Notes under the pieces: generated by a model
Told to the model about the DNA's origin: nothing
The model's database searches: none
The model's input: the letters and a program-made list of their open reading frames with translations, nothing else
Source of the DNA: a virus
Virus record (IMG/VR): IMGVR_UViG_3300017989_000071
Coordinates: 53,645-117,644 of that record
DNA: 64,000 nt
Direction: 5' to 3' (one strand)
Part shown: positions 10,013 through 33,197 of the stretch, in pieces
Layout: each line of letters starts with the position of its first letter
Position numbering within the stretch: position 1 is the first letter of the stretch
Program-made: the position numbers and the translations under genes

Positions 10013-10119
10013 CGCTCACCTGTTTGTATCATGCAAGGTTCCGTGTCTTCCGTAACACAGGCGACCCACCGCCGAACGAGGAGTAAGTACGATGGGCCGC
10101 CCCACAAAAGGTAAGACCG

Positions 10120-10148
10120 ATAATACCTCGGTCGTTAGGGGTTGTCAA
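10120..10148 (-). promoter_or_regulatory. Sigma70-type promoter for the primase/polymerase operon
   Basis: TTGACA (10148-10143), 17 bp, TATTAT (10125-10120). Confidence 0.65.
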
Positions 10149-10642
10149 GCGAAATCTTCCTCCTTCTGAGAAATCGCCACGAAGCGGTTATCCCCGAGAA
10201 TCCAGCCGATCCCTCCCTTAACGGTGGACCAGTCCAGCTCCCCAGCACCGCATCCGGGCCGGGGCAGCCAAACCTCGTCGTATTCCTCCCACACCCGGAG
10301 AACCTTCACCTTCTCGACGAGCTGTTTGGCACTACGGATAATCAGGTCCATATCGGAAGGGAGTCGCCACTCGTATTTGGTTGGAAAACTGAATAAATCG
10401 GCTTTCCGGGAGGGGTGGGGTCCGTAAACACCGCGTAGGTCGTGGACGACGTTACCCACTGAAGAGATCATCCCCCCAAGAACGCGGTCGATGCCGGGAT
10501 ACCGTTCGGCGGCTGCTCGCGCACACCCCCGGCCCATCACCGCCGTCCCGTCCGAGTGGATTTCGCCGTTCGTCGTAATGCACCGCAGAACGATCTGCCC
10601 CTCGGGTGGAACGGACCAAAGATCGGTTGCTCGCTCACGCAT
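10145..10642 (-). CDS. Macrodomain (ADP-ribose processing, DarG/Poa1p-like) protein
   Basis: ITTNG....AVMGRGCA...AERYP, FSFPTKYEWR, LPRPGCGAGELDW. Confidence 0.85.
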   Translation of the reverse strand: MRERATDLWSVPPEGQIVLRCITTNGEIHSDGTAVMGRGCARAAAERYPGIDRVLGGMISSVGNVVHDLRGVYGPHPSRKADLFSFPTKYEWRLPSDMDLIIRSAKQLVEKVKVLRVWEEYDEVWLPRPGCGAGELDWSTVKGGIGWILGDNRFVAISQKEEDFA

Positions 10643-10871
10643 TGGACTCTCCGGCCAGCCGAGCGGCCTCGCGCAGAGCAGGGTAAGACTTACGTACCTG
10701 AATCGCTCCGTCGGAAAACGCAGCCACCAGATCGCGAAGGAGTGCGCTCACGTTCCCCTCGTAGTCGGTAACCTCCTCGGCCACCTCTTCGATCCGGTCC
10801 CGGACGCTCCTCCCGATCACCGATTGAATCCGTACACTGTCCTCGCCTTCGAGAACTCGTCGTCGTGGCAT
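10635..10871 (-). CDS. Ribbon-helix-helix (CopG/Arc-like) DNA-binding protein
   Basis: Alternating beta-strand VRIQSVI, helix RSVRDRIEEVAEE, second helix NVSALLRDLVAAF; RBS GGAGAAGG. Confidence 0.55.
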   Translation of the reverse strand: MPRRRVLEGEDSVRIQSVIGRSVRDRIEEVAEEVTDYEGNVSALLRDLVAAFSDGAIQVRKSYPALREAARLAGESNA

Positions 10872-10919
10872 ACGCCTTCTCCATCTCTGCTCCCACGCAT
10901 TTTGTTAGTAGATAAAGTA

Positions 10920-11621
10920 TCATCCCGTTTCCGCCTCTCCCCCGTCGTCTTCCTCTTCCACCGAATACACGTTGGCGAGGGCATTCCGAACGCGCTCGCG
11001 CAACGGCTCGTTGCTCGACCCAATGACCGATCCGGGGTGAACCGGCGCATGGCTCTCGTCGTCGATCCAGTGCTCGGCGAGATCGGCCAGAATCCGCAGG
11101 CCGTCCGCGCCGCTGACCTCTTGCTTGTACCCCTCGAAGCCGATGGCCTCGTAGAGGGGAATCCAGTGCTCGTCGTAGAAGTTGTAACCGGCCCCGTCCA
11201 CACAGATGAAGACGCCGACGGCATCGTCCTCGCACACCCGGACGTTCGCCTTCTCGGCCAGCTCTTGCGCCCGGCTCCGGAGAATCGACTCCATCGCCGA
11301 ATCGTCGGCGACGAAGAGGGTGCCCCACATCGGGGGATCGCGGAACAGGGTCAGCTCGCTCGCCTCGAACACCTCGTCGGGATCGTTCGGGCACCGCACC
11401 TGATCGATATACTCGTCGGTCGGATGCTCGACCGCCTCGAACTCCTCGCGGTCGAACTCTTCTCCGCAATTCGGACAGGTACGGGTCGCCGCACCCAACA
11501 CCGTGACGCGATCATACCAGTCCTCGGTCGGAATGGTATCCTGCTTGACGAAAGAAAAGTCGCGGTCCATCCACGCCTCGACAGCGGCCCGCTTCGTTGC
11601 ATACCTCGGAAACCTCTTCAC
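10920..11621 (-). CDS. Hypothetical phage protein with a small Cys motif (CPNC...CPND)
   Basis: GTG start after AACGAGGAGAA RBS; phage-like acidic composition. Confidence 0.7.
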   Translation of the reverse strand: MKRFPRYATKRAAVEAWMDRDFSFVKQDTIPTEDWYDRVTVLGAATRTCPNCGEEFDREEFEAVEHPTDEYIDQVRCPNDPDEVFEASELTLFRDPPMWGTLFVADDSAMESILRSRAQELAEKANVRVCEDDAVGVFICVDGAGYNFYDEHWIPLYEAIGFEGYKQEVSGADGLRILADLAEHWIDDESHAPVHPGSVIGSSNEPLRERVRNALANVYSVEEEDDGGEAETG

Positions 11622-11635
11622 GTTATTCTCCTCGT

Positions 11636-12040
11636 TCAGTACGGTTCGCATTCCCAGAGCAGGGTCTCGAAGGCCGTATCGCCCACGAGCTCCTTCAGCT
11701 CCTTCGTTTGGTTCTCGGTCGCTTCGTACCGGCGGACGGAATCTTCCCGATCATCCCACGGGTCGAAGCCCAGATCGTCACACCACTCCTCGAAGGAGCT
11801 GGCGTTCTCGATAGTCACCGCATCGAGAGCAAGGCACGACAAAACATCCGCCGCCTCGGGGGAGCGTTTCCACCCAGTCCCCGTGCTGAAGTGGATGGTC
11901 ATAGACTCCCGCGACCCTTCTCCCCCGGAGACGGTCACCGTGTAATGGTTCCCCGCTCCCGGCCAGAAGGGATTCACCTCATCGGTCCGGTCAGCCTCGA
12001 CCTTGATACCGTGTTGTTCGATAAAGTCTTGAATCGTCAT
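11636..12040 (-). CDS. Hypothetical phage protein (first gene after an early promoter)
   Basis: ATG 12040 after AACGAGGAC RBS, immediately downstream of promoter 12066-12094. Confidence 0.75.
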   Translation of the reverse strand: MTIQDFIEQHGIKVEADRTDEVNPFWPGAGNHYTVTVSGGEGSRESMTIHFSTGTGWKRSPEAADVLSCLALDAVTIENASSFEEWCDDLGFDPWDDREDSVRRYEATENQTKELKELVGDTAFETLLWECEPY

Positions 12041-12065
12041 GTCGTTGTCCTCGTTCATGTAGCGT

Positions 12066-12094
12066 ATGATAATATCTTTCGAGTACGTTGTCAA
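12066..12094 (-). promoter_or_regulatory. Early sigma70-type promoter with conserved CGTACTCGAA spacer
   Basis: TTGACA-ACGTACTCGAAAGATAT-TATCAT. Confidence 0.85.
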
Positions 12095-12393
12095 GCCTTT
12101 TTTGTGCGATCTTCGTTCGGAGCGCGATACCAATCGTTAAGGGTACAGGTACACCCCTCGCCGATTGCCATCATCCGCGCCAGCTTCGAGTCGGCCCCGT
12201 GATCGAGGATCAACTGGCAGTAATGTCGTTGATCCTCCTCGGACCAGACCAACCCCCGGCAAGGCGGTTCGACCGGCTCGTTGCACTCATAGAACTCGAT
12301 GCCCAGAGCGCACACCTGCTTCACGCAGCAGAAGCCGCAACCGACGCAGGGGGGATAACCCCCCTTGTCGTAGATCGTCGGAAAGTCCGTCAC
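12091..12393 (-). CDS. Small Cys-rich protein (CxxCGxCC, YkgJ-like metal cluster); not called separately in the ORF track
   Basis: GTG 12393 overlaps the ardC TGA; VTDFPTIYDKGGYPPCVGCGFCCVKQVC...C...C...CTC. Confidence 0.65.
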   Translation of the reverse strand: MTDFPTIYDKGGYPPCVGCGFCCVKQVCALGIEFYECNEPVEPPCRGLVWSEEDQRHYCQLILDHGADSKLARMMAIGEGCTCTLNDWYRAPNEDRTKKA

Positions 12394-13313
12394 GCCGCTT
12401 CCTCCTGATCGTCTTCGTCTTCCTCTTCGGCGGACTGAGCCGCGAGGATCAGGTCCGCCGCCTTCTGCGCCTGAGCCGCCGCGTAGACCAGCAGCTTCCG
12501 GTCGTCCTTCAACTTCGCGAGCCAATTCTTGATGTAGGCCGCGCTGTTGTCGATCACCACGTTCTCGATCCCGCAGAACCCGCACAGGCAGCTCGCGCCC
12601 AACTCGGCGACCAGCTCCTCCTGAGAGTAATTGTTGCCGCCGAAACCGTCGTGCTCGACCAAGCTCTTCCGGTTGAGACGATCCTTGTGGCCGGTCGAAT
12701 GGGAGAGCTCGTGAAACAGGGTGGAGTAGAACGCCTCGGAAGTCTTGAAGTGCTCCGGCTTCGGGCAGCCGATGTAGTCGGTACCCGCGATATAAAAAGC
12801 GTGGCTCCCGCCGAACTTGATCTCCGGCTTCTCTTCCCAGCCGTCCACCACCCGACCGCACACCTCGATAGGGGTGAAGTCCGCGCTCGGCTTCGCCGCC
12901 TCGGGAATCCGGTCTTCCAGACCGTCGCACTGCTCGACGTTGAACACGGTGTAGTAGCGCAGCAGGGGAATCTTGTCCACAATCGGCTCCCCCTTCTCGT
13001 TGGTCTGGCCGGTCTCTTTTTCGAGAATGCGCCAGAACACGACCGGGGTACCGCGCTCGCCCTTGCGAACCTGACCGCCAAGGGTCTTGGCCTGCTTGTA
13101 GGTCACCCACCACGGCGTCGCGTAACCCGAACCCAGCAGCAACCAGACGTTGATGCCGCGATACGGCTTCTTGCTCACGAGATTGCGGTGGAAACCGCCG
13201 CCGCCCGGAACCGACCACGGCTTCTGCCACGGCACCACACCCTGCTCCAGCAGCGCGATAATCCGATCCGTCACGATCTCGTATACGTCTTTTTTGGATT
13301 TCGTCTTAGCCAT
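12390..13313 (-). CDS. ardC: ArdC-family antirestriction ssDNA-binding protein with zincin-like domain
   Basis: VTDRIIALLEQGVVPWQKPW, YRGINVWLL, FNVEQ, TLFHELSHSTGH..RLNR, YSQEELVAELG. Confidence 0.9.
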   Translation of the reverse strand: MAKTKSKKDVYEIVTDRIIALLEQGVVPWQKPWSVPGGGGFHRNLVSKKPYRGINVWLLLGSGYATPWWVTYKQAKTLGGQVRKGERGTPVVFWRILEKETGQTNEKGEPIVDKIPLLRYYTVFNVEQCDGLEDRIPEAAKPSADFTPIEVCGRVVDGWEEKPEIKFGGSHAFYIAGTDYIGCPKPEHFKTSEAFYSTLFHELSHSTGHKDRLNRKSLVEHDGFGGNNYSQEELVAELGASCLCGFCGIENVVIDNSAAYIKNWLAKLKDDRKLLVYAAAQAQKAADLILAAQSAEEEDEDDQEEAA

Positions 13314-13348
13314 TTTATTCTCCTCGTTCGTTTGTCAGTCTCAATCGT

Positions 13349-13377
13349 ATTATATTACCTTTCGAGTACGATGTCAA
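13349..13377 (-). promoter_or_regulatory. Early sigma70-type promoter with conserved CGTACTCGAA spacer (drives ardC)
   Basis: TTGACA-TCGTACTCGAAAGGTAA-TATAAT. Confidence 0.88.
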
Positions 13378-13416
13378 GAGTATTTTTCGACTTTTTTCGT
13401 TTTCCCCTAAAATCCA

Positions 13417-13458
13417 AGAAAAACCCCCGATGCCAGCGTGGGAGCGGCACCGGGGGTC
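13417..13458 (-). terminator. Intrinsic terminator after helicase
   Basis: ACCCCCGGTGCC...GGCATCGGGGGT stem followed by a T-run on the minus strand. Confidence 0.7.
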
Positions 13459-13497
13459 GGGCCGGTGAGAGCGGAAGAGGAAGTTGACCCCCACCGG

Positions 13498-14826
13498 CTA
13501 TTCTGCCTCGCCCTCGTCCTTGCGCGTCGCATCTTCGAGAATCGAGGCCCGTTTGTAATCGGAGCGCGTATACACGCGGTACTGGCTCTCTGCGCGACGG
13601 AACTTGTCAACCCAGATGTATTCTTTATTTACTGTAAGAATTATGTCGGCCTTGTTTGTCTTCTGCGAACTGTTGGCGACGTTGAACTGGCTGAGCTGCA
13701 CCTTCCTCGGATTTCCGTACAAGGTCTTGCGGCTGATCTGACTCGGAGCGATCACGACCGCCTTGACCTCCTTCGCCAAGTCCATCAAGGAATCGTAAAT
13801 CTCCCCCATCGTCGAATACATCTGCTCCCCGGTCCCGCCGCGAAGCTGATCGGGATAGTCCACGACAACCATCGAAGGGGAGACATTGTACCGGGCCATC
13901 GCCGCCGTCACGTGAGATCGTATCTGCCCGAAGCGCGTCTTCCCCGGCGGAAACTCCTTGACCAATATCTGCTTCGACCCCAGACCCATCTCCTTGAACC
14001 GCTGCTCGTAGAGGGCAGACCCCTTCACGATCTCGTGCATCGCCACCCCCGACAATTTCGAGGCATAACGCAGCAGCACATCGTGCTCGTTCAGATCGCC
14101 AATCGTGTAATGGAAGACCACCCCGTTACGCCGTGCCTCGAAAGCCGCGAGGTTCACGGCCAGCATCGACTTCCCGCCACCGCTGAACCCGAGGATCACG
14201 ACCAGCTCGCCCTTACCGAATCCTCCGTAGGATCGCTCGTTCAATGTGGGAAACGGAGTCAATACCCGGCCATCCGGGTTGTAGGAAGTCTGCCGCAGAA
14301 TCTCCGGAAGGTCGGCCCCCACCTCGGACATCCGCGTCCCGATATTCGCCACGTCGTCCCCGACCCGACTCGCCGTCTGCAACCATTCGAGATAATCCGA
14401 AGCGTGGCTCCGCTCCTCGGGGGGCAGCATCAGCTCTTCGGCAATCCGGGCGACCGCCTCCCTCTCGGCGCAGTCCTTGGCGAACTGGATAACCTGCGTG
14501 CGGATATAGACTTCGTCGGTCAGGTCCGCTTTCGTGTAAGCGTAGTCGATCTCCTTGATCGCCCCCTCGATACTCTCGTTCGGCAACCCGTGCTGCCTTG
14601 CCCAACTCTCCAGCGCGACAACCATGCTGTCCCGCGTCGGAACCTGCCCGTGCTCGTCGTAGTGGTTGAGCGCGATACGAGCAAGGGGGACCAGCAGATC
14701 GTGCGCAAAATAGGCCGAGTCGATTGCATCGCGAAAGTGGACGAGAAACATCGGATCGCGGACGATCAGGGCAAATATCTTGCGCTGGAATCCGAGACCG
14801 AACGGGTATTTTCCATGCCCCTCCAT
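13498..14826 (-). CDS. Replicative DNA helicase (DnaB/gp41-like)
   Basis: GELVVILGFSGGGKS Walker A, VVVDYPD Walker B, PSQISR, NSSQKTNKADII; ATG 14826 overlaps the upstream TGA. Confidence 0.88.
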   Translation of the reverse strand: MEGHGKYPFGLGFQRKIFALIVRDPMFLVHFRDAIDSAYFAHDLLVPLARIALNHYDEHGQVPTRDSMVVALESWARQHGLPNESIEGAIKEIDYAYTKADLTDEVYIRTQVIQFAKDCAEREAVARIAEELMLPPEERSHASDYLEWLQTASRVGDDVANIGTRMSEVGADLPEILRQTSYNPDGRVLTPFPTLNERSYGGFGKGELVVILGFSGGGKSMLAVNLAAFEARRNGVVFHYTIGDLNEHDVLLRYASKLSGVAMHEIVKGSALYEQRFKEMGLGSKQILVKEFPPGKTRFGQIRSHVTAAMARYNVSPSMVVVDYPDQLRGGTGEQMYSTMGEIYDSLMDLAKEVKAVVIAPSQISRKTLYGNPRKVQLSQFNVANSSQKTNKADIILTVNKEYIWVDKFRRAESQYRVYTRSDYKRASILEDATRKDEGEAE

Positions 14827-15110
14827 CACCGGGGAACGAACTCGTCGCCAACCTGCGCGGCGTAGTAGTCCCGCCACGCCCGAATCTCAAGGCGATTCGA
14901 GGGGTGGGAAAGAAGACGCCGATAAGCCAGCCGGTCTAACTGAAATCCGACCGCTTCCTCCAGCTCGGCAACGGCCTCGTTGATGCCTCCCTCCTCATCG
15001 GGTACGAACTCCCCCGCCAGAGAACAATCGACCCGAATGGACTCGAACTCTCCGATATTGAGGGTCACCCCGGAAGACACACTGATCCTGTCGATGTTTA
15101 CTTTGGGCAT
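14826..15110 (-). CDS. Hypothetical phage protein, translationally coupled to the helicase
   Basis: GGAG RBS 7 nt from ATG; ATGA overlap with the helicase. Confidence 0.75.
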   Translation of the reverse strand: MPKVNIDRISVSSGVTLNIGEFESIRVDCSLAGEFVPDEEGGINEAVAELEEAVGFQLDRLAYRRLLSHPSNRLEIRAWRDYYAAQVGDEFVPR

Positions 15111-15142
15111 TGCAAGGCTCCCTTCACTGCTTTGTGTGTAAA

Positions 15143-15253
15143 CTATTTACCAGCCAAGAACCGCAGAACCCACAACGCTCCCTTGTAGAGAACATGCAGG
15201 GTCAGGCCGATCACCAGACTGCAAATCACGATTCCGGTCGTACTCATTTCCAT
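15143..15253 (-). CDS. 36-aa single-pass membrane peptide (below the ORF-track cutoff)
   Basis: GAGGAG RBS, MEMSTTGIVICSLVIGLTLHVLYKGALWVLRFLAGK*; fills the gap between the DHH gene and 15110. Confidence 0.6.
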   Translation of the reverse strand: MEMSTTGIVICSLVIGLTLHVLYKGALWVLRFLAGK

Positions 15254-15286
15254 GTGGATTCTCCTCTTCCTTCGATTGACCCGCCG

Positions 15287-16168
15287 CTAGGCTCCCACGC
15301 CCGGCAGGTTGAGAGGTTGAGGGAGACGGAAGCCAGCCGCATGACGGTGACCCCCGCCCCCATAACCTTTGGCGACCTCGGACACGTCCATGCCCCGGTC
15401 GTTACTCCTGAGTGAATACAGGTAGTCCCCCTCGCGTGTCTGAAACCAGACAACCGCAAAGGGGCGATCCTCGGCCAACCTGTTACCGACCTCCGACATG
15501 TGGATCGAAGCGCAGCAGGTGGGCACAACCGCAGTCCCCGCCCTTCCATTCCCGCGCAAAGGGAACTCGACATCCCTTGCGTTTTCGACTGCTTGATCGA
15601 CGATCTTGTTCCGGTATCGCAGAAGAAGTTTCCCGCGCTCGATCAGGTCTTCGAGGCCGTTGTTCATCATGTTCGTGGACAACTCCTCCCAGACTCCAAG
15701 CTCACGCTCGGTCACCCAGATCAGCGCGTTTACCGCCTCGCTGTCGGGCATCTCCCACCTCCAGAGATCGCGATCCTCGACGTAATCGACGATATAGGGC
15801 CGTGGCGTATCGGGATTGAAGTAATCCCACGCCAGCCCGCAGCCGGATCGGTTCATGTCGAACGTACAGAAGGGCAAACCCTCACAATTCGCCCTCGCCG
15901 TCTTGTGGTGATCGAAGACCAGAAGCCCGGCGGCTTCCTCCTGCATCCGAAGCAGACTCTCGCGGGGATAGCTGAAGTCGAAGATCAGGACAAACTTCCC
16001 GGCCAGATTTTGCGGCGGCCCCTCGCCGTACTTCGCGAAGATCACTTCGTAGGGGATTCCGGTTTCTCGCAGATGCCGATGTGCGACCCACGCCGCCGTG
16101 AACCCGTCAGCGCAATTCGCGTGAGAGATCACCAGCACCTCCCTTGCGTTGTCCGGCAGCTGAAACAT
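15287..16168 (-). CDS. DHH/DHHA1 phosphoesterase (NrnA/NrnB-like)
   Basis: SHANCADG, FDFSY, FDHHKT, DRDLW, GGGGHRHAAGF; AAGGAG RBS before ATG 16168. Confidence 0.88.
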   Translation of the reverse strand: MFQLPDNAREVLVISHANCADGFTAAWVAHRHLRETGIPYEVIFAKYGEGPPQNLAGKFVLIFDFSYPRESLLRMQEEAAGLLVFDHHKTARANCEGLPFCTFDMNRSGCGLAWDYFNPDTPRPYIVDYVEDRDLWRWEMPDSEAVNALIWVTERELGVWEELSTNMMNNGLEDLIERGKLLLRYRNKIVDQAVENARDVEFPLRGNGRAGTAVVPTCCASIHMSEVGNRLAEDRPFAVVWFQTREGDYLYSLRSNDRGMDVSEVAKGYGGGGHRHAAGFRLPQPLNLPGVGA

Positions 16169-16169
16169 G

Positions 16170-16494: not shown

Positions 16495-16499
16495 GTAAT

Positions 16500-16528
16500 A
16501 GCATACATACACCGTAGTACCTTGTCAA
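16500..16528 (-). promoter_or_regulatory. Sigma70-type promoter upstream of the structured RNA
   Basis: TTGACA (16528-16523), 17 bp, TATGCT (16505-16500). Confidence 0.65.
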
Positions 16529-17430: not shown

Positions 17431-17787
17431 TTACTTGTTGAACCAAACCACATGTGTCCATTCTCCCTTCGTCAACCACAGATCAGACGGGGCGAAGTGT
17501 ACCGAAGACATCTCGCTCTCCGTAGCATACCTCCCACAGCCGTCATCGTCCGTAAAGGCTCCAAACTCGACCGCCTGCTCAAACTCCTCAATGGTCATGT
17601 GAACACCGCAGTCTGGCAACGGCTCCATCAACAAATCGACACGAAACATCTCCGGATAGCGCACACGCATAACAGCCTCACGTAGAGCGTACTCACCGAC
17701 AAACTCTTCGACTCGACGTTCATACTTCCCGATAAAGCTGCCAGTCAGAATCGACCGCGCTCCTTGACTCAATTCACCGTCTTTCAT
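17431..17787 (-). CDS. Hypothetical phage protein
   Basis: GGAGGA RBS before ATG 17787. Confidence 0.65.
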   Translation of the reverse strand: MKDGELSQGARSILTGSFIGKYERRVEEFVGEYALREAVMRVRYPEMFRVDLLMEPLPDCGVHMTIEEFEQAVEFGAFTDDDGCGRYATESEMSSVHFAPSDLWLTKGEWTHVVWFNK

Positions 17788-17841
17788 TGTATCCTCCACT
17801 CACTGCAAGATTCCTATCCCGTTCTGGCACGGTTCATGCTT

Positions 17842-19599: not shown

Positions 19600-20581
19600 T
19601 GGACACCTTCGCTTTCACCTCCTGAGCGAGCATGGTCGCACCGACAACCGCCCCCTGCTTCACATCGTCCCGGTGAGCCATCAGGATCGCCGAAACGAGC
19701 TGGAGCTTCGAGAGGAAGTTAGCCGCCACATCGCGGGCCTCCTCTTCGTACTCCCCTTTGTTGGACAGCAGATCGGACACCTGAGCCGGAGAAATCCCCG
19801 TTTCCGCATCGGCACCTATGATCTCGTTGATGGCCGTGTGCGCCTCGTTCAGGAGCTTGGCGGTAACAACCCCCAAGTCGTAGACCAGCTTGGCCCGTGT
19901 TACGTCGTCCGCCACATCGTCGATCCTCGACTCGTCAACCATCAGGTTCTCGTCGCACGGGAGCGGCACGTGTACCGGAACATGGTTGCCGCCGGGGCAG
20001 ATAATGTAGATGTAGGGGCTGGCCCCGTCCTTCGTCCTTGCCACCCCGAGCTGTCCCCCTTCAAGCAGCCCGTCAATCTGTTTGTGAACCTCTTCCCAAA
20101 TTGCATCGGCGACCTCTTCCTCGCTGAGCACGCGGTCGTCCGATTCGTTCGTGGAAGAATCCTCCCCCTCCGACGAGGAGTGCAAGGTTCCGGAGGGAGA
20201 GGTAGAAGAACGCTTCGCCGCCTGTTGGGCGGTTTTATTCATGTAGTAACGATCCTTGTTGATCCAGACCCGACCGTCGCGGGCGAGGTAGTGGATGCCC
20301 TTGGCGTCCCGCCCGTAGTAAGTCGCCCCGTAGGACACGATCTCGATCTCGATTCCCCACAAACCCAGCCCGTGATCCGGCGTACCGGGAGCCTGCCAGA
20401 ACAAGCCCTTCAGCCGTACCGCCTTCTTCGGGATTTTTCCAGCCTTCGTTTGGTTGAACGGCACTCGGCGGTAGAAGTGGGCGTAGCTTCCCCCGTCCTC
20501 ATGGGTTTCCCACATGACGATGATGGAGGGGGCTTCGTTGAAGCGGTCCCCCCGGAACGTAGTGTGTTTGGTAAAGGCCAT
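19589..20581 (-). CDS. Hypothetical phage protein (two domains joined by a Ser-rich linker)
   Basis: AACGAGGAGAG RBS before ATG 20581. Confidence 0.65.
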   Translation of the reverse strand: MAFTKHTTFRGDRFNEAPSIIVMWETHEDGGSYAHFYRRVPFNQTKAGKIPKKAVRLKGLFWQAPGTPDHGLGLWGIEIEIVSYGATYYGRDAKGIHYLARDGRVWINKDRYYMNKTAQQAAKRSSTSPSGTLHSSSEGEDSSTNESDDRVLSEEEVADAIWEEVHKQIDGLLEGGQLGVARTKDGASPYIYIICPGGNHVPVHVPLPCDENLMVDESRIDDVADDVTRAKLVYDLGVVTAKLLNEAHTAINEIIGADAETGISPAQVSDLLSNKGEYEEEARDVAANFLSKLQLVSAILMAHRDDVKQGAVVGATMLAQEVKAKVSNAN

Positions 20582-24139: not shown

Positions 24140-24961
24140 TTAGTATCCGAACCGTTCGGCTTGGGCGGCCTCCTGCGGACAGGGACCGGGATCGACGTGG
24201 GCCAACTCCTTCGGCACCTTCGGGAGCGGCTTCCAGCAAGTCGGCGTGGACAATTTACACTCCTCCTCGTGGTCGATCCACCACGGCTCCGCGTCGCTGC
24301 CGATGAACTCGAAGTACCGCACGACCCGGTATTCCTTGCTGCGGGCGAAGTAGGCCAGCACGGGATCGCTGTCCTTGACCTTGGTTTCCTCACCCCGGAC
24401 GTGTCGCGGGATCGGAACCGAGACCTCGGGCTTGCGCCACTCCTCCAGCTCCTTCAACCGGTTCTTCAGCTCGGGGTAGGACGGCTCCGGGTTGGCATGG
24501 GGATCGAAGCCCCAGCCGTTCCGCTGCGATCCGCGCTTCGGGTCGAAGGTCACCCGGTCGATGACGTACTCGACGCTGTTGTGGATGTGGTCACCGTAGT
24601 AGTCGGCGTTGAATCCCCAATACTTCCGCTTGTTGCCGACACGCCCTTTCAACTTCCCCCCGAGACCGAGCAGGATATGCCCCTCGGAAACGGTGTAGGT
24701 CAGATCGAAGTAGGAATACCCGTCGTACCCACCGTACTCGTCCATGTCATGATGGCTGGCCGAAATGACCACCGCCGTCACGAAGCACTTCTCGTCGTGG
24801 CTCAGCAGATCGAAGTATTCATCGGTAGAGCACAGCCCCCGGCCCTTGATCCGGATGCCGATCCCCTCGCACGAGAACCCCCCGCCACCGATCTGATCGT
24901 ACAGAGCGTTGATGATCTTGTGGTTCAAGAGGTGTACTTGAAAGGTGCGAATGCTGTTCAT
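24140..24961 (-). CDS. Hypothetical phage protein
   Basis: AACGAGGAGAA RBS before ATG 24961. Confidence 0.7.
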   Translation of the reverse strand: MNSIRTFQVHLLNHKIINALYDQIGGGGFSCEGIGIRIKGRGLCSTDEYFDLLSHDEKCFVTAVVISASHHDMDEYGGYDGYSYFDLTYTVSEGHILLGLGGKLKGRVGNKRKYWGFNADYYGDHIHNSVEYVIDRVTFDPKRGSQRNGWGFDPHANPEPSYPELKNRLKELEEWRKPEVSVPIPRHVRGEETKVKDSDPVLAYFARSKEYRVVRYFEFIGSDAEPWWIDHEEECKLSTPTCWKPLPKVPKELAHVDPGPCPQEAAQAERFGY

Positions 24962-24984: not shown

Positions 24985-25233
24985 TTATTCGGCGAAGGAT
25001 TCCCCGAGCAACGCCTCGAAGAATGCCACCCGTGCCTCGGCTCGATGTTTCATCTCTTCCGCCAGTAGCTTGAACATCCTCCCCCGCAAAATCTCTTTTT
25101 TGTATTCCGGACCACCGGACTTCAGCACCTCCTCGTACTCCGGGAGGTACCGCTCTTCGTACTCCCGAGCGGATTCGCGAGCGAGAGCGAGGTGGCCTTC
25201 GACCTTCTCGATTTCCTTGGCAGTCATTGTCAT
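24985..25233 (-). CDS. Hypothetical helical protein
   Basis: AACGAGGAGAA RBS downstream of promoter 25263-25291. Confidence 0.7.
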   Translation of the reverse strand: MTMTAKEIEKVEGHLALARESAREYEERYLPEYEEVLKSGGPEYKKEILRGRMFKLLAEEMKHRAEARVAFFEALLGESFAE

Positions 25234-25262
25234 TCTCCTCGTTCGTTGTCATTGCTAATCGT

Positions 25263-25291
25263 ATGATAATACCTTTCGAGTACGATGTCAA
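25263..25291 (-). promoter_or_regulatory. Early sigma70-type promoter with conserved spacer
   Basis: TTGACA-TCGTACTCGAAAGGTAT-TATCAT. Confidence 0.88.
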
Positions 25292-26020: not shown

Positions 26021-26058
26021 AAAAAAAAAAGCCCGCCGACTTTGGGGAGCCGACGGGC
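26021..26058 (-). terminator. Intrinsic terminator ending the small RNA
   Basis: GCCCGTCGGCT-CCCCAA-AGTCGGCGGGC followed by T10. Confidence 0.85.
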
Positions 26059-26101
26059 TTTGTCTGTTCGTGCGGATGGGGTCCGCACCGGAACCTTGCA
26101 C
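26021..26101 (-). ncRNA. Putative ~80-nt small RNA (own promoter and terminator, no ORF)
   Basis: Promoter 26135-26107, single-stranded 5' end GUGCAAGGUUCC, hairpin 26088-26070, terminator 26058-26021. Confidence 0.7.
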
Positions 26102-26106: not shown

Positions 26107-26135
26107 ATGATAATCCGATGCGTTTTCGTTGTCAA
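26107..26135 (-). promoter_or_regulatory. Sigma70-type promoter of the small RNA
   Basis: TTGACA (26135-26130), 17 bp, TATCAT (26112-26107). Confidence 0.8.
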
Positions 26136-26143
26136 CTCAACGA

Positions 26144-26176: not shown

Positions 26177-26236
26177 CCACGGGGGTTAATGGATTTTAGT
26201 CCATCAGGGGTCTTTCGAGCGGAATGTGGGAACCCG

Positions 26237-27052
26237 TCAGGCGGCGGCTTCTCCGAACTCGTAAATCAGGCCGAGCCGCGTGAACAGCATCTTGCCGTAA
26301 TTCGAGCTGGGAACGGCCACCCCCTCGAAGACGAAGGGCACCTGTGGACGTTTGCGGAGCTGGCTGAACCCGATGCCGATCTTCCCCATCGACACCTTCG
26401 ATCCGATCTTGTCGAGCTTCCCGTTGCGGTCGAGGAGGGACACGTTCGAGCCGTCGCCGAAGACGGCGGCTTCCTGTCGGTAGTCTTTGACCAGCCCGGC
26501 GATCAGATCGCGGAAGTCGGCCACGTCCATCCCCTTCGGCATCGGCACCCACAAGCTGTCCTCCACCGAGTCGGTTACGATCCCCTGACGGATCGCTTCC
26601 GCCTTGGAAATCGTCTCCCCGGTCGGGAGGACAAACTTCGCATCCCCCTTGTCCGTGAGCTCGATGTCGATCACCCCGTCGGGTCCGTTCAGGACCAGCT
26701 TACCGAGCGAATCGTTCCACTCGTTCTTGTACGGGGGAACGCCCTCGATCCAGTGCCCGACCAACCGGGCCGCGCCCGCCTTCAGCGCGTTCAACCGCTG
26801 GATCAAATCGCGGTTCTGCCCGACGTTCGCCCTTCGCGAAACCGCCTTCCCGAACTCGTCGGTGTTTTTGAACGCCGTGAGGATCGCAAAGGGCTGTTTC
26901 GACTGGCGGAAGATGCGGGACAGGCTCGCCTCGTCGATTCGACCGAGGCAGGAACGAACATACTCGTTGTCGTCCTCGTTCGCCCCACGGATACGGGCCA
27001 ACTCCTGCTCGATCTTTTCGTCCGCTTCGAGCAAGGTTCGTTTATCGGTCAT
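26237..27052 (-). CDS. Hypothetical phage protein (EASLSRI...FAILTAF motif)
   Basis: GGAGG RBS; downstream of promoter 27089-27117. Confidence 0.75.
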   Translation of the reverse strand: MTDKRTLLEADEKIEQELARIRGANEDDNEYVRSCLGRIDEASLSRIFRQSKQPFAILTAFKNTDEFGKAVSRRANVGQNRDLIQRLNALKAGAARLVGHWIEGVPPYKNEWNDSLGKLVLNGPDGVIDIELTDKGDAKFVLPTGETISKAEAIRQGIVTDSVEDSLWVPMPKGMDVADFRDLIAGLVKDYRQEAAVFGDGSNVSLLDRNGKLDKIGSKVSMGKIGIGFSQLRKRPQVPFVFEGVAVPSSNYGKMLFTRLGLIYEFGEAAA

Positions 27053-27088
27053 GCAGACCTCCTTCCTGCGACATGAATCGCGCTACGA

Positions 27089-27117
27089 ATCATATACCGT
27101 CTTACGTCGTTTGTCAA
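27089..27117 (-). promoter_or_regulatory. Sigma70-type promoter
   Basis: TTGACA (27117-27112), 17 bp, TATGAT (27094-27089). Confidence 0.7.
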
Positions 27118-27899
27118 GCTTCGTGGATCAGGAGGAACGACCACCGATTCACGGATACGTTCTCGGAAAAAGCCCTCGGCAGGATGGGCATCCATTGATG
27201 ATCGGTCATTCCCCCACGGTTCGGAGAGTAGATCACCCGGACCCGATTCTGGTCAATCGCGTCGAGGATCGGTGTCGTTGGGAGGACCGGATAGGCCATT
27301 CGCATCGCGGCGAGGTTCTTCAACCCCTTCTCGATCCGCTTTTGGCTGGCCTGTCGGAGATACTTCTTCCGCCACTGGATGATCGGACCGCGATCCTTCG
27401 GTTTGATTTCCGTCAGATCGCCGCCCCAGCACTTCCCCTCTTCGGCCATCATGCCGAAAGTCATTAACGCATCGAGGAACGGGTCCAGACTGACCGGATC
27501 GTTGAAGGCGTGGTACATCACTGTCGCCAGCTCGGGAGATACCCCGAGGAGAGGCAGGCGCAGCGCGTAGGTGTTGACCAAATGCTCCCACGGATACCCC
27601 TCGTGGTTGAGAAGCCACGGCAGGTAAAGCTTGAGGTGCCCGGAGAGCCGCGCCGCGATCCAATGGTTTTCGGCTATCGTAACCGGCTTCCCGTTCGGCA
27701 CCGGATACTCGATGTTCCCCGAGCGATAGATACGGTCGAGAGCTTCGAGGATATGCCTGCCGAGGCGGTCTTCATCTTCATCGTCGTAGATGTCGAGATC
27801 ACCCCCGAGAACCTTTCCCAAGAGCTCCAACTGCTCCCGCCACCCCGACTTCTGCATCGTCGTCCGGAACGTGTTTGCCGTCATTCGGTCGCTCATCAC
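27114..27899 (-). CDS. Hypothetical phage protein
   Basis: ORF track; GGAGG RBS. Confidence 0.65.
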   Translation of the reverse strand: MMSDRMTANTFRTTMQKSGWREQLELLGKVLGGDLDIYDDEDEDRLGRHILEALDRIYRSGNIEYPVPNGKPVTIAENHWIAARLSGHLKLYLPWLLNHEGYPWEHLVNTYALRLPLLGVSPELATVMYHAFNDPVSLDPFLDALMTFGMMAEEGKCWGGDLTEIKPKDRGPIIQWRKKYLRQASQKRIEKGLKNLAAMRMAYPVLPTTPILDAIDQNRVRVIYSPNRGGMTDHQWMPILPRAFSENVSVNRWSFLLIHEA

Positions 27900-28194
27900 T
27901 TCCTCCCTGACTAATGATCGTACACCCCGTTCGGCTCACGAAGCCGATGTTCCTGTCGATGCCGTGTTTCTCGTCCAAATTCTGCATCTCGTCGATAGCG
28001 TTGGCGGCATCGTTCAACAGCAAAACTAACTTCGGAAGGTCGTCCGGGCGGTAGTGGGCATCCCTGCGCCACGCGCCCCGGACCACGCGCCAGATCACGG
28101 TGTCGTAGTATACCTGATCCGGATGCGGATTTCGATAGACCACGACCGCGACGTAGCGATCCTTGAATAATTTGACGGCATTATCTCCGAGCAC
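27799..28194 (-). CDS. Hypothetical protein (3' end overlaps the next gene by ~100 nt)
   Basis: Fills the gap after the head morphogenesis gene; N-terminal ~95 aa look coding. Confidence 0.5.
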   Translation of the reverse strand: MLGDNAVKLFKDRYVAVVVYRNPHPDQVYYDTVIWRVVRGAWRRDAHYRPDDLPKLVLLLNDAANAIDEMQNLDEKHGIDRNIGFVSRTGCTIISQGGSDERPNDGKHVPDDDAEVGVAGAVGALGKGSRG

Positions 28195-29131
28195 GCTTCT
28201 TTACCTTTCGTCGATCTTTCAGGATGCGGCGGATCATCGTCTGCGACTTCCGATTCCGCCGGAATGTTTGCTTGTACTTCGCCGGGGTGGCGTCCTCGAA
28301 ACGCAACCGGCAGCGGCAGTTATCTAAACATCTCGTGAGTCCGGCCTTCGGGGTTGTCGGGAGTCTGGACTTCACATACGGCGAGCTGCGCCACAGGGTC
28401 TTACAATCCGGGCAGGCTTTCCGATCTTCGAGAATCCAGTGAATCACCGTGTTTGGGGGAACGACCATCACCCGGCCCGCGTGGAAGATCGAATTGACGG
28501 TCTTCACGTATCGCCCCAACCGCTTCTCGACCGACTGGCGAGAGCGATCCTTGGCGATGTCCTTGATGAGGCGGTTGAAGTATTTGAACTCGTGCTTGAT
28601 CGCGGAATCGACCCACTGCCGGTCGTCCGGCTGAAGGTCAACCAACTTCGCCTTCCTCAATCCGGGAATCCCCGACGCTCTCACCCCAAGGATGAACGCA
28701 CCGAGGTAGGCGGTCTTCAACTGTGCCTTCGCCCGCTCGCTGAACTGGCGCAGCGAGAACTCCCCGCCCTGATACTGGCGGTAGAGCTTGACCAACTGCC
28801 CTTCGAGCAGATCGAGCCGCTTCTTCATCGACCGGGACGATGAAGTAGTCGCGGAGTGTCGAATCTTTTTGAGCGCATCCCCGTAGAAGGATCGCGCTCC
28901 GGCGGCGGTGAGGCTGTGGGCGACCATATCGCCCTTCAGCGATCCGAGGTACTTGGCCTCGATGATCTGCCGCAGGTTGAGGAGCACATCGACGACAATT
29001 ACATCGACGGCTCCCTGATCCGGATCGAGATCGAGCTCGGAGACAACGTATTCCCGCAGATCGTCGAGGATCGCGGCATCAACGGTGTCGCCGTCCCAAA
29101 CCCAATCATAGGTCTTCGTCGCCCTCGGCAT
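28181..29131 (-). CDS. Head morphogenesis protein (SPP1 gp7 / Mu gpF-like)
   Basis: Follows the portal; C-terminal W...CPDC...P...C..NCRCRL motif. Confidence 0.75.
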   Translation of the reverse strand: MPRATKTYDWVWDGDTVDAAILDDLREYVVSELDLDPDQGAVDVIVVDVLLNLRQIIEAKYLGSLKGDMVAHSLTAAGARSFYGDALKKIRHSATTSSSRSMKKRLDLLEGQLVKLYRQYQGGEFSLRQFSERAKAQLKTAYLGAFILGVRASGIPGLRKAKLVDLQPDDRQWVDSAIKHEFKYFNRLIKDIAKDRSRQSVEKRLGRYVKTVNSIFHAGRVMVVPPNTVIHWILEDRKACPDCKTLWRSSPYVKSRLPTTPKAGLTRCLDNCRCRLRFEDATPAKYKQTFRRNRKSQTMIRRILKDRRKVKKRARR

Positions 29132-30995
29132 CTTCTTCCTCGGGATCGACGTACTCTCGGAGATGTTTCATATTGACCCGGCCCGGCGTTTGGTTTCGGC
29201 GCGGACGGGGGCGTTCACCGCCTTCTCCATCGCCCTTCACCTCGGCTACCAGCTCGCGGATCGCTTTCGACAATGCCTCACGAAGAGCCTGCTTGTCGAT
29301 CTGCGTTTCTTCCCCCTCTTCCCCGGTCTCGATGCTTTGTTCCATCTCTTTCCCGAAGCGTTTGAGCTCATCCGCCGACAAACCAACCACGTTTGTCAGG
29401 ATGTAGATGCGCCACGTTACCGGATCGAGGCCGAACTGGTCGCCCATTTCGAGCATCCGCTGCGCCACGTCGAGCTTGGTCTCCATCGCTTCGAGCCGCT
29501 GAAGGAGCTCGATCTGCGACGGTTCGACCATCCGCAACTTGAACGATCCGACGATCTGGGACGCCTTCTCCGCGATCTGCATGAAGATACTCTCGGTATC
29601 GACGCGGACTTCCTTCCCGTTCGATTCGTAAAGCACCTCCTCGGGAACGGCGTCGAGGTGGCCCCGAAGAATCTTTTCCCACAGCTCATCCCCGATTCCA
29701 TACTGCTCCTTGATACTCGGTACGATGTCGCGGAGCAGGAGGTGGATTTCGCACAGCGTTGTCAGGCCGGTGATAATCGCCCGCTGAATTTTCTTGACCC
29801 CTCGGGCGAAGCGCACGTCCTGCGAGCTCAGGGTGTTCGCCGCATCCACATCCCCTTCGTATCCGAAATAGGCTTTCGGAGCTCGCAGACCGGCGAAAAG
29901 TTTATTGATGAAATTGTCGTAATCGACCGCATCGGTGACCGAACCGGCAGCGGGTAGTACATCGACGCGGCTGTTCTGGCGATCTCCACGTACAGGATAG
30001 AAAATATCGTCGTCAAACGACATAGGGTTGTAGAGAACATCGAACTCTCCGGTCAGGGGATTCTTGAACTCCCGCTTCTTCATCGCGAGTCGCCAAGTCC
30101 GCAAGGTCTCGGTGACTTGCGCCGGGCTGGAGGTGGGACCGACATCGACGTAGTAGATGAACCGATCCACGGATTTCGTGAGTCGGTAGATCATCATCAA
30201 CTCTTCGAGCAGGCGGACCTGCTTGCCGGTGCGTTCGACGTTGTAGAGGAGGGAGGTGCCGTAGATGTAGGGATCGAGGCCGGGGTCGTTGTACTTCCAC
30301 TTCTTCGTCTTGCGCGAGTAGATGCGGAAGTGAATGATGTCCCACGCCATCCACAGGTCTTCTTCATCGACCGTGGTGGCCGCGAGGTTGTCGAGCAAGG
30401 CAAACCCGTAGAGATTGCCCCGTTCGTCTTCGACCCGTTCGACCATTCGGGGATCGAGCCACTGGATATTCAGGATGCCGTCCGCGCTGTTCGGATCGTA
30501 ATGGTTCCGCATAAAGTCGTCGCCGTTCTGCGCGACATCGTGCGCCAGACCCTCGATCCACTCTTCGACATTGATCGTATCGAAGAGCTGATGGATCGCG
30601 GTGACGACCTTCTTCTCCTCGGACTCGGCCCAGACAGTCCGTTGCTTGTCCTGATTGAACTGCGTGGCGTCTTCCGCATAGCCATCGAGCACGGAACCGA
30701 TCTCGGGAACCCGGCTGATCTCCTCGTAGATGTTATACATCTTGATTCGATCCGCCGACGTTTCCATGTACTGCGCGTACTTCAGGAACCAGTTTTTCGA
30801 GAGCAAGCCATCACCGCCGAAGACGGCACCCGCCATCCCCATATTGGATTGCGGGGAGTCAGGACCAGAGACCGGCGGGGGTGCCTGCTTGGCCTTCCCG
30901 CCGAAGAGATCGAACAGCGAACCGAGACGCCCTTTCGGCCTGTCGGTCGAGTAGGTGCCCTGCGGCACAACGATTTCGATGACTTGCTTATCCAT
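29106..30995 (-). CDS. Portal protein (T4 gp20-like)
   Basis: YEEISRVPEI...YAEDA, MIYRLTKS.DR.IYYVDVG, DDIFYPVRG...VDVLP, LFAGLRAPK. Confidence 0.9.
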   Translation of the reverse strand: MDKQVIEIVVPQGTYSTDRPKGRLGSLFDLFGGKAKQAPPPVSGPDSPQSNMGMAGAVFGGDGLLSKNWFLKYAQYMETSADRIKMYNIYEEISRVPEIGSVLDGYAEDATQFNQDKQRTVWAESEEKKVVTAIHQLFDTINVEEWIEGLAHDVAQNGDDFMRNHYDPNSADGILNIQWLDPRMVERVEDERGNLYGFALLDNLAATTVDEEDLWMAWDIIHFRIYSRKTKKWKYNDPGLDPYIYGTSLLYNVERTGKQVRLLEELMMIYRLTKSVDRFIYYVDVGPTSSPAQVTETLRTWRLAMKKREFKNPLTGEFDVLYNPMSFDDDIFYPVRGDRQNSRVDVLPAAGSVTDAVDYDNFINKLFAGLRAPKAYFGYEGDVDAANTLSSQDVRFARGVKKIQRAIITGLTTLCEIHLLLRDIVPSIKEQYGIGDELWEKILRGHLDAVPEEVLYESNGKEVRVDTESIFMQIAEKASQIVGSFKLRMVEPSQIELLQRLEAMETKLDVAQRMLEMGDQFGLDPVTWRIYILTNVVGLSADELKRFGKEMEQSIETGEEGEETQIDKQALREALSKAIRELVAEVKGDGEGGERPRPRRNQTPGRVNMKHLREYVDPEEEDAEGDEDL

Positions 30996-30999
30996 GCTC

Positions 31000-31263
31000 C
31001 TATCGCTCCGCGTTGTAGGCTTTAATTTCCGCCTCGTACTGTTTCCCCCACCGGATCAGCATCCCAAGGTTCTCCTCGATCTTCTCGAAGTCCTCAGCCT
31101 GCATAACAGCCTGTTCGTCGGGGGTCAAGGTCACCGCATACCCCGAGTGGAGCTGCGGGCGAGGAAGCACAGGCAGCTCGGGACACTTGCAGCGGCGGCT
31201 GACGCAGCTACTCGCCCCGATTGAAATCAGAAAAATCGTGAGTAACGCCGTCGGTGGTCTCAT
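31000..31263 (-). CDS. Outer-membrane lipoprotein, o-spanin (Rz1)-like
   Basis: MRPPTALLTIFLISIGASSC: signal peptide with lipobox, then a Pro-rich segment; overlaps the upstream gene. Confidence 0.65.
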   Translation of the reverse strand: MRPPTALLTIFLISIGASSCVSRRCKCPELPVLPRPQLHSGYAVTLTPDEQAVMQAEDFEKIEENLGMLIRWGKQYEAEIKAYNAER

Positions 31264-31456
31264 CCCGAAAGCCCTCCACGGTTGTCTCCACATCCTCGAC
31301 CTCCTCGATGGCTTCGTCCACCGCCCGATCCACTTCGAGCTGATGGACACGCTCCTCGGCCCGCTTCAAACGATAATCCCGATACCACGCCCACGCGGCA
31401 CCGAGAATCTTGAAGAGGGAAGCGATGCCCGAGAGGATTTTCAAAATCATCGTCAT
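31208..31456 (-). CDS. i-spanin (Rz)-like membrane protein
   Basis: N-terminal TM segment followed by a coiled coil; between the holin-like gene and the lipoprotein. Confidence 0.6.
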   Translation of the reverse strand: MTMILKILSGIASLFKILGAAWAWYRDYRLKRAEERVHQLEVDRAVDEAIEEVEDVETTVEGFRDETTDGVTHDFSDFNRGE

Positions 31457-31854
31457 TCGGCGGAACCCGGACCGGGAGGTACATTCCGGGGGATACTCGG
31501 AGCTGGGGGATTATTCGGCTTCCCTTTTCCGTTCTTCCGCTTCTTCCTCGGAACGACAATCGGTGCGTTCTTCGACATCTCGTAGGTCGCCTGAGAGGAC
31601 TGCGCCCCACTGACGACTGCCATGTAAACGCACACCCACTCTACCCACGTCGGGGGATGGACCATTGCCGTTGCCACCCCGCCGACTACCAACCCAACGA
31701 TGGTCGGCAGGTAGTAGTTGAGCTTCTTGTTATCCACGAAGGCACGGATGATCGCCGTCACCTTCGGTGTGAGGAAGTACATGAACCCCATCGCCGAGGC
31801 CATCAAGACCCCGATATTATCCATGACGTTCTGGATGGATGTCGGCTCAGCCAT
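31453..31854 (-). CDS. Holin-like membrane protein
   Basis: Two to three hydrophobic segments, basic C-terminal tail, directly after the endolysin. Confidence 0.6.
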   Translation of the reverse strand: MAEPTSIQNVMDNIGVLMASAMGFMYFLTPKVTAIIRAFVDNKKLNYYLPTIVGLVVGGVATAMVHPPTWVEWVCVYMAVVSGAQSSQATYEMSKNAPIVVPRKKRKNGKGKPNNPPAPSIPRNVPPGPGSAE

Positions 31855-32632
31855 TGTCGTTCTCCCTGATCTTCGAGAGCTCATGGGCGAGGGACGATTG
31901 CGTCTTCGTCGTGAACTCCCCGAGGGGCGAGATTCCCTTCTCGCTCTGATACCGGTACAAGGCCCGCTTTGACAGCGGCCCCCAAATCCCGTCGATTTCT
32001 CCGGTGTAGTAGCCGAGGCGTTTCAACCCCTCCTGATACCACCGGAGCATACTGTGCTCTCCATTATCCGGTTCGGGGGTTCTTCGCACCGCGTCGATAA
32101 TTCGTTGGAGGGTGTATCCCGGACACGCCGGTTTACCGAAGTGGTAGTGACCGTAGAGATCGCTCGGACCGAAGCCAAACACGTTGAGCAAAACCTTCCA
32201 GAGCTGAAGTCCGGAGATGATCTGATCGGTACTCGGCTCGCCGATGTTTTTCCCCGAGACACCCCGACCGGCGAAAAGTCCCTCGAACATCACCGAGATA
32301 AATTCCGCGTTCTCGTCGCCCGGCCTCTCCTTCGTTCCCTGCGACCACGGCTTCGCTTCGAGATCGTTGCAGAGCAGGACTTCCCCATCACGGCGAATCG
32401 CAAAGGTATAGGCAATGGACGGCAGACCGCCGGGGAGGAGATGATTATCGGGGCCGATGTGGTAGCGGGCCACGTCCTCCACGGTTCCCCATCCCAACGC
32501 CTGATGCCACACTACCCCCTTGAGCTGAAATAAATCCCGCCGGTCCCACGTTGCCCCCTCCTTGGAGGGCAACAGGGAACGGGCATCCGTTATTCCGGCC
32601 TGAAGAATCTGGTCTTGTTTTTCGCTGGACAT
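31847..32632 (-). CDS. Endolysin: N-acetylmuramoyl-L-alanine amidase (Amidase_2) with C-terminal peptidoglycan-binding domain
   Basis: VVWHQ, YHI, IAYTF, FEG, GHYHFGKPACPG; LKRLGYYTGEIDGIWGPLSKRAL..YQ. Confidence 0.88.
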   Translation of the reverse strand: MSSEKQDQILQAGITDARSLLPSKEGATWDRRDLFQLKGVVWHQALGWGTVEDVARYHIGPDNHLLPGGLPSIAYTFAIRRDGEVLLCNDLEAKPWSQGTKERPGDENAEFISVMFEGLFAGRGVSGKNIGEPSTDQIISGLQLWKVLLNVFGFGPSDLYGHYHFGKPACPGYTLQRIIDAVRRTPEPDNGEHSMLRWYQEGLKRLGYYTGEIDGIWGPLSKRALYRYQSEKGISPLGEFTTKTQSSLAHELSKIRENDNG

Positions 32633-33197
32633 GCAAGTCTCCGTTGAGCAAGGTTCCACGACCGCACGGAACGTCGTCACCCTCGATGGCGAAGAATACG
32701 TCGATGCGGCCCTCGGGACACGCTTTCGGATCGGCGGCGAGCTGACCCTTGCCGCCCGATAATATCACATATCCCTCGAAGACGGTAACCCATTCGTCCC
32801 GAAACCCTCGAACGAGGATCGCTCCGTTGGCATCGGCTACGAGATTTCCCTCGAAGTCGCAGGCGCGGAGCTGCATTTCCTTGTCTTTTCCGACCTCCAG
32901 ATCGCCCCCAACTTTGATTTTGTAGAACGCACCCGGCTCCCACCGCTTCCATGCTCCATCCTCGTAGTACATCTCCCGGAGCAGAGAGATCAGCGAAGAG
33001 GTGGTAAATTCTCCTTCGGTCAGCGTCGGCGAGATCACGGACGGAAAGAGACGCTTCATATCGGCAAGCGAGTACGTCACCGATTTTTCGTCTTCTCCTA
33101 ATGCGTACTTCGACGTACCGGGAGGGAGGGTCGCCACCGCAGAAGCAACCCGTCTCCCGGCCCGCCGAACAGTTTCTATACTAACTAACGGTCCCAT
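32445..33197 (-). CDS. Hypothetical virion-associated protein (3' 188 nt overlap the endolysin)
   Basis: Coupled to the large tail protein; function unknown. Confidence 0.55.
   Translation of the reverse strand: MGPLVSIETVRRAGRRVASAVATLPPGTSKYALGEDEKSVTYSLADMKRLFPSVISPTLTEGEFTTSSLISLLREMYYEDGAWKRWEPGAFYKIKVGGDLEVGKDKEMQLRACDFEGNLVADANGAILVRGFRDEWVTVFEGYVILSGGKGQLAADPKACPEGRIDVFFAIEGDDVPCGRGTLLNGDLHVQRKTRPDSSGRNNGCPFPVALQGGGNVGPAGFISAQGGSVASGVGMGNRGGRGPLPHRPR

Follow-up and report, generated by a model that had tools for sequence, protein, structure and literature searches.

Introduction

Few trans-acting small RNAs (sRNAs) of phages have been characterised, and VpdS, PreS, and 24B_1 all originate from temperate phages (PMC12197685). 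VpdS of vibriophage VP882 and PreS (LPR1) of phage lambda are stand-alone RNAs that bind Hfq and act in trans, the former on both phage and host mRNAs (PMC12197685; bioRxiv 10.1101/2024.10.31.621285). Similarly, the c4 antisense RNA of phages P1 and P7, a processed RNA of 77 bases, acts in trans and represses the synthesis of the phage protein Ant (PMC8546580). In Pseudomonas phage PAK_P4, a cis-antisense transcript of about 550 nt that lies over the endolysin gene, PAK_P4as15, was proposed to delay lysis (PMC12197685). Here, we report on a 64,000-nt stretch of the virus record IMGVR_UViG_3300017989_000071, which encodes a candidate sRNA of about 80 nt whose 5′ end is complementary to a short box recurring at translation starts of the same genome. 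Pairing of these boxes with a trans-acting phage sRNA is the explanation that we consider best, with moderate confidence.

Boxes of this kind were described earlier in Cluster K mycobacteriophages. These start-associated sequences (SAS) are short and asymmetric, contain a Shine-Dalgarno (SD) core and lie a few nucleotides before an ATG, mainly in the non-structural half of the genome and often behind large intergenic gaps; all share one orientation apart from a single inverted copy, which is not tied to a gene start (PMC3203893). Their role was still unknown in 2024, and no trans-acting factor is known (PMC11373665).

Recurrence of the Box at Translation Starts

The stretch analyzed, hereafter the window, comprises the right 64 kb (positions 53,645 to 117,644) of a 117,644-bp record with a GC content of 59%; positions are those of the window unless given as genome positions. 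A self-trained open reading frame (ORF) model yielded about 125 genes, all of them on the minus strand except for one weak call, and a motif written on the plus strand is therefore antisense to every mRNA. The 11-letter box complements nt 2-12 of the candidate sRNA exactly (Table 1). An earlier note on this DNA had listed copies of the motif, all of which were recovered at their positions, and its suggestion that the motif concentrates near start codons was borne out by a full count on both strands: with at most one mismatch, TGCAAGGTTCC occurs 7 times in the window compared to 0.61 expected, and 0 of 100 shuffles reached 7. Over the whole 117.6-kb genome, the same count gives nine copies on the plus strand and two on the minus strand. 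One of these two is the 5′ end of the sRNA, and the other (genome 33870, one mismatch) was rejected as a second sRNA because of its position inside a gene.

Counted over the genome, GGANNCTTGC is present 10 times in mRNA sense vs. three times on the opposite strand. Seven of the 10 sense copies end 1-21 nt upstream of a start codon, at six genes, and two of these seven lie outside the window, the first at genome 36555-36565, where it abuts the ATG of a 219-aa gene, and the second at genome 45287-45297, where 17 nt separate it from the ATG of a DinG/XPD-like helicase gene. The recurrence of the box is thus real and strongly non-random.

The same six genes stand out when the predicted seed of the sRNA is compared with all translation start regions (TIRs, taken from -40 to +20). 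The real seed forms at least 10 Watson-Crick pairs, with at most one G-U pair, at six TIRs, whereas 1000 permuted seeds do so at a mean of 0.05 and a maximum of one; when the SD-like half of the seed was kept fixed, 179 permutations reached a mean of 0.09 TIRs and a maximum of three. Similarly, a duplex energy of -20 kcal/mol or lower is found at five TIRs, whereas 500 permutations average 0.19 such TIRs and never exceed two, and none of the antisense sequences of the same TIR windows reaches this value. At thresholds of -16 kcal/mol or weaker, duplex energy fails to tell real from permuted seeds, and helices with unlimited G-U pairs are too permissive to serve as a test. A ranking of the phage start regions that includes accessibility, as envisaged in the earlier note, came out in favor of sRNA pairing: once the cost of opening both partners is included, the six TIRs occupy ranks 1-6 (-11.6 to -14.7 kcal/mol), followed by two genes at -9.8 kcal/mol and by the remainder at -5.6 kcal/mol or weaker.

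The reverse comparison is equally selective. Among 12,633 sense-strand intergenic 14-mers used as seeds, only two loci match at least three TIRs, namely the 5′ end of the sRNA (6 TIRs) and a primase-leader hairpin loop (7-8 TIRs), and among all 117,631 sense 14-mers, only three loci reach six TIRs. In a 120.9-kb control phage with the same one-strand layout, no sense 14-mer matches four TIRs or more. Chance, helped by the general richness in GGA and GGAG before start codons, would suit the weaker copies at 27031, 61161, 43705, and 50447, which occur at chance expectation, and SD sequences rich in GGA are indeed widespread in this genome; as an account of the boxes it is nevertheless rejected by the permutation, shuffle, opposite-strand, and control-genome tests, and we find it scarcely credible.

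The Candidate Small RNA

The complement of the box lies at the 5′ end of an ORF-less unit that has neither an ATG nor an SD sequence and is enclosed by its own promoter and an intrinsic terminator (Table 1). The promoter is one of 11 near-consensus sigma70-type promoters on the sense strand, compared to 0 on the antisense strand; together they delimit an early region running from about genome position 36,600 to window position 27,100. From the position of this promoter, the transcript is predicted to start near 26101. The terminator consists of a 14-bp hairpin with a U10 tail, and the consensus promoter of the next gene follows directly 3′ of it. The predicted fold of the 81-nt RNA (-38 kcal/mol, z = -4.6) leaves nt 1-7 unpaired, and the seed is accessible according to this fold.

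A search of the sRNA with the covariance models of Rfam 15 gave no family at the gathering score, and the best sub-threshold matches concerned terminator hairpins only. Its 5′ part had no exact match in viral contigs.

Box Architecture and Candidate Target Genes

The box reads as an SD core, GGAA or GGAG, followed by a 6-7-nt spacer, CCUUGC(A), so that pairing with the sRNA would in every case mask both SD and spacer. Five of the seven start-region copies run straight into a start codon, either that of the gene itself or that of a short leader upstream ORF (uORF). Among the former, GGAGCCTTGCA-ATG occurs twice, at unrelated genes, and GGAGACTTGC-ATG occurs at the endolysin gene. The latter arrangement is found at two genes. 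In the primase leader, the 12/12 match (10032-10043) is placed 20-31 nt before the primase ATG at 10012, and the uORF that begins within the box stops 4 nt beyond this ATG; the uORF before the gene starting at 17787 stops 11 nt beyond the main ATG. This layout suggests that the primase and the 17787 gene are translationally coupled to a leader peptide. Considering the box together with the uORF starts as an SD-spacer cassette unifies the two classes of position, those abutting the ATG and those 14-19 nt upstream.

The candidate targets are the primase, the DinG/XPD-like helicase, a gene of 94 aa that overlaps and leads into the DnaB-like helicase gene, the endolysin, which harbors Amidase_2 and PG_binding_1 domains, and two genes of unknown function. 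Three of them head replication units, and the DinG/XPD-like helicase, being a candidate target located outside the window, strengthens the replication theme. At three boxed genes the leader, of about 30-100 nt, comes directly behind a near-consensus promoter. The endolysin start carries a tandem pair, whose second box presents one G.A mismatch and one G-U pair. The intragenic copy at 20180-20193, the only one clearly displayed in a loop, falls largely within a 16-nt loop closed by a 13-bp hairpin stem (20162-20201, minus strand), a structure that may act as a decoy or as a site of processing. The loop of this hairpin also bears an anti-SD run (CUCCUCG).

Table 1. Positions of the candidate sRNA unit, of the box copies in the window, and of associated leader elements.
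Feature	Position	Strand	Remarks
ORF-less promoter-to-terminator unit	26135-26021	(-)	
sRNA promoter, near-consensus sigma70-type	26107-26135	(-)	TTGACA, 17 nt, TATCAT
Candidate sRNA, 81 nt	26021-26101	(-)	Free 5′ end, 7-bp hairpin, A-rich linker, terminator
Predicted sRNA seed, GUGCAAGGUUCCGG	26088-26101	(-)	Opening of nt 1-12 predicted to cost about 2.6 kcal/mol
Primase-leader box	10031-10043	(-)	13 bp including one terminal G-U; duplex -24.2 kcal/mol
Primase-leader uORF, MIQTGERW* (8 codons)	10006-10032	(-)	Starts at last base of box
Primase-leader hairpin	10060-10101 (loop 10070-10087)	(-)	Loop complementary to early ribosome-binding site GAACGAGGAG
Box GGAGCCUUGCA	15111-15121	(-)	SD plus spacer; abuts ATG at 15110; duplex -20.5 kcal/mol
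Box GGAAUCUUGCA	17804-17814	(-)	Just 5′ of SD of ATG at 17787; duplex -17.7 kcal/mol
GTG-started uORF, 9 codons	17803-17774	(-)	Directly 3′ of box GGAAUCUUGCA; overlaps ATG at 17787
Tandem pair, upstream box before endolysin ATG	32648-32658	(-)	32648-32657 matches 10/10
Tandem pair, second box GGAGACUUGCA	32632-32642	(-)	Endolysin SD plus spacer; abuts ATG 32632
Intragenic box, 14/14 match	20180-20193	(-)	Ser-rich coding stretch; P(unpaired) 0.71, most accessible copy
Weak copy, 9-nt match	27031-27039	(-)	Codons 5-8 of gene starting at 27052; may be a chance match
Mid-gene copy GGAGACTTGC	61161-61170	(-)	Probably a chance match

One phage sRNA thus probably controls the translation of the six boxed genes, as judged from sequence, and the likely mode is translational repression by occlusion of the SD. 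The RNA would be made from its own host-type promoter and ended by the strong intrinsic terminator; its single-stranded 5′ end would then pair with the 11-14-nt box at six phage mRNA start regions, covering SD and spacer and blocking 30S subunits. Repression could be direct or, at the primase and the 17787 gene, exerted through the uORF. We infer the transcription of the RNA, its pairing in vivo, the sign of the regulation and any role in timing from this arrangement; the coordinate timing of replication and lysis proposed in the earlier note may be one consequence of it.

Several observations weigh against sRNA pairing. Nucleotides 8-11 of the seed are held in a weak 4-bp helix, and the values predicted for target-box accessibility, 0.12 to 0.63, do not stand out. 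A frame beginning with the GTG at 26101 runs open into the next gene, an objection that loses weight because the terminator and a consensus promoter stand between them. The nearest relatives examined (capsid 60% and 47% identity; primase 30-32%) are devoid of the box. The pattern of G-U pairs is confounded by selection on the SD, as detailed below. Finally, the box doubles as an SD-plus-spacer cassette, and the sharing of such a cassette could by itself give recurrence at starts.

This last point is the core of a competing explanation, in which the box is a shared, SAS-like cassette of SD plus spacer, acting alone or via an mRNA-binding protein, and its RNA complement is incidental. The ATG or GTG placed directly 3′ of five of the seven TIR copies fits this idea, as do the SAS themselves, which have the same layout and no known factor (PMC3203893; PMC11373665), and the fact that about 10 genes of this phage share another recurrent cassette, GAACGAGGAGAA. 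On the contrary, an exact complement is expected, by our estimate, only about 0.1 times in the approximately 12.6 kb of sense intergenic sequence, and the one observed sits in the accessible first 12 nt of an orphan promoter-terminator unit; moreover, the other recurrent cassette likewise has exactly one complement displayed in a loop. We therefore regard an incidental complement as rather unlikely.

The substitutions among the boxes bear on the same question. The earlier note had argued that single changes turn Watson-Crick pairs into G-U wobbles, as RNA-RNA pairing would predict, and indeed, among the five copies in start regions with a single mismatch, four are G-U compatible (p ~0.005, or ~0.02 if two identical GGAGCC copies are counted once). 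The clean evidence is nevertheless limited to two changes, 17814 C-to-U and genome 45287 A-to-G, because the commonest substitution, A to G within GGAA, at the same time creates the SD core GGAG. The sRNA interpretation of that note holds as regards the complementarity of the seed and the concentration of its targets at starts, both far above chance, whereas its G-U argument is weaker than claimed.

The earlier note had also raised the alternative of a CsrA site, which accounts for the GGA alone and not for the conserved CUUGCA. Every box begins with GGA, and a 97-aa CsrA-like ORF (3010-3303, minus strand) was detected with a Pfam E-value of 9.8e-6 and 25.9 bits, just below the 27-bit cut-off; the binding protein would be that of the phage or the CsrA of the host. 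However, the conserved part 3′ of the GGA (NNCUUGCA) is outside the CsrA consensus, A(N)GGA is present in only four of the seven copies, display in a hairpin loop is inconsistent and the complementary sRNA end is left unexplained, which together make recognition by CsrA highly improbable.

Alternatively, the 11-mer could be an asymmetric DNA site for a phage protein; it would function as an operator where it spans +1 to +12 of the sRNA promoter, and as a stoperator-like roadblock at its other positions. One copy does overlap the start of a strong promoter, and the copies are orientation-biased and close to gene starts, as are L5-type stoperators (PMC3203893). Yet their position is fixed to start codons (0-1 nt or 14-19 nt) and not to promoters, predicted transcript starts and box starts being about 10 to 70 nt apart, and the promoter-proximal copy is oriented opposite to all others. 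In addition, a dyad partner is absent and no repressor was identified, although no systematic search for one was made. A DNA-binding site is thus very unlikely in our view. Two further ideas, that the box pairs with 16S rRNA or that the copies are replication iterons, were set aside on general grounds, given that the sites are scattered and keep to start codons.

A Second Class of Ribosome-Binding Sites

The box is the second most recurrent 14-mer of the TIRs, behind the extended ribosome-binding site (RBS) GAACGAGGAGAA. An extended RBS, GAACGAGGAG (class A), is common to about 8-10 early genes, and the loop of the primase-leader hairpin is the top match in a genome-wide scan for sense elements complementary to TIRs. 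This arrangement raises the prospect of a switch made of RNA only, in which the early sRNA would silence the box, as a class B RBS common to replication and lysis genes, while the primase-leader loop would act against the class A RBS, so that the two classes of mRNA would mutually shut each other off. We consider a full switch of this type a speculative and decidedly unlikely extension of sRNA pairing; if true, it would suggest that start-associated boxes elsewhere, e.g., the SAS of Cluster K, are targets of phage antisense RNAs.

A class A RBS was also noticed behind a consensus promoter at 25229-25291 (minus strand), pointing to a start near 25231. The gene model, with its start at 24961, missed this start, which likely belongs to a small gene or to a longer form.

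Neighboring Genes

Other features were noticed next to the boxed genes. Just upstream of the gene starting at 15110, a 36-codon ORF (15142-15252, minus strand) with a good SD encodes a hydrophobic peptide. At the endolysin gene, a 250-aa ORF (32445-33197, minus strand) that comes after a gene of 1452 aa reads through the endolysin start and does not encounter a stop codon until 188 nt inside the endolysin gene, the endolysin boxes being located inside it. The final 70 residues or so of this ORF resemble out-of-frame sequence. A 91-aa ORF (32952-32677) was rejected as the gene preceding the endolysin, its GC content at third codon positions (GC3) being 0.40.

Relatives of the Phage

The phage had no match in searches of the phage collection by megablast and blastn. 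Similarly, neither the capsid protein nor the 271-aa protein encoded next to the sRNA had a relative in the viral contigs searched, and the latter had none in metagenome contigs. Near-identical contigs of 128.8-129.2 kb are present in the protein index, and the closest non-self homologue of the primase shares 32% identity. Capsid relatives at 60% identity are structural fragments of 6-40 kb without replication genes, and the 120.9-kb record used as control (GC 45%), with a capsid at 47% and a primase at 30% identity, contains no box. Relatives of the endolysin are spread across bacterial metagenome-assembled genomes (MAGs) of several phyla, and no box was found upstream of them in these MAGs.

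Comparison with Described Systems

In its proposed mechanism, the candidate described here comes closest to c4 and to VpdS and PreS, whose seeds lie in an unpaired region, which pair with several mRNAs and which support the lytic programme. These two RNAs belong to temperate phages with known hosts and act mostly on host targets through imperfect matches, whereas here a near-identical, dedicated box is present in six genes of the phage itself, which encodes a T4 gp23-type capsid protein (61842-63284) and its own replication set comprising a primase, a DnaB-like, a DinG/XPD-like, and an SNF2-type helicase. No sequence similarity or Rfam match links VpdS or PreS to the candidate sRNA.

With c4, the candidate would share the principle of a phage RNA that acts in trans to repress the synthesis of phage proteins. 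The c4 RNA pairs at the ribosome-binding region, is cut from the operon that it controls and affects this single operon, whereas the unit described here has its own promoter and its sites are spread over about 50 kb, in six transcription contexts. PAK_P4as15 is likewise an RNA proposed to restrain endolysin translation; in our case, the RNA stems from a locus 6.5 kb distant on the same strand and would pair through only 10-11 nt.

The SAS offer the closest parallel for the box itself, which is also asymmetric, contains an SD core and recurs in many copies in one orientation near gene starts, i.e., with the same layout. SAS are 13 bp long, of another sequence and present in 11-19 copies, compared to the seven copies found here; given the difference in sequence, the box is an analogue and not a homologue. 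The lone inverted copy in the present genome coincides with the 5′ end of a promoter-terminator unit and thereby provides a concrete RNA partner. In Adephagia, 16 forward SAS accompany one inverted copy (JF704105, 58682-58694). Placed on the sense strand, the latter follows a terminator-like hairpin within the 430 nt that separate genes 92 and 93 and carry no annotation. About 300 nt around this copy are conserved in 182 Cluster K records and may be non-coding. Some relatives nevertheless have small genes annotated there, and not every subcluster has the inverted box; we take this region as a lead, not as support.

Biological Significance

If the pairing proposed here takes place, this phage would possess a six-gene regulon of a stand-alone sRNA, in a large phage with its own replication machinery. 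What recognises start-associated boxes has been an open question since 2011, and such an sRNA would offer an answer that can be tested. Both the sRNA and the 11-nt box are small enough for direct testing with reporter fusions, for which the natural host is not needed. More generally, it would show that phages can set the translation of replication and lysis genes with one small RNA.

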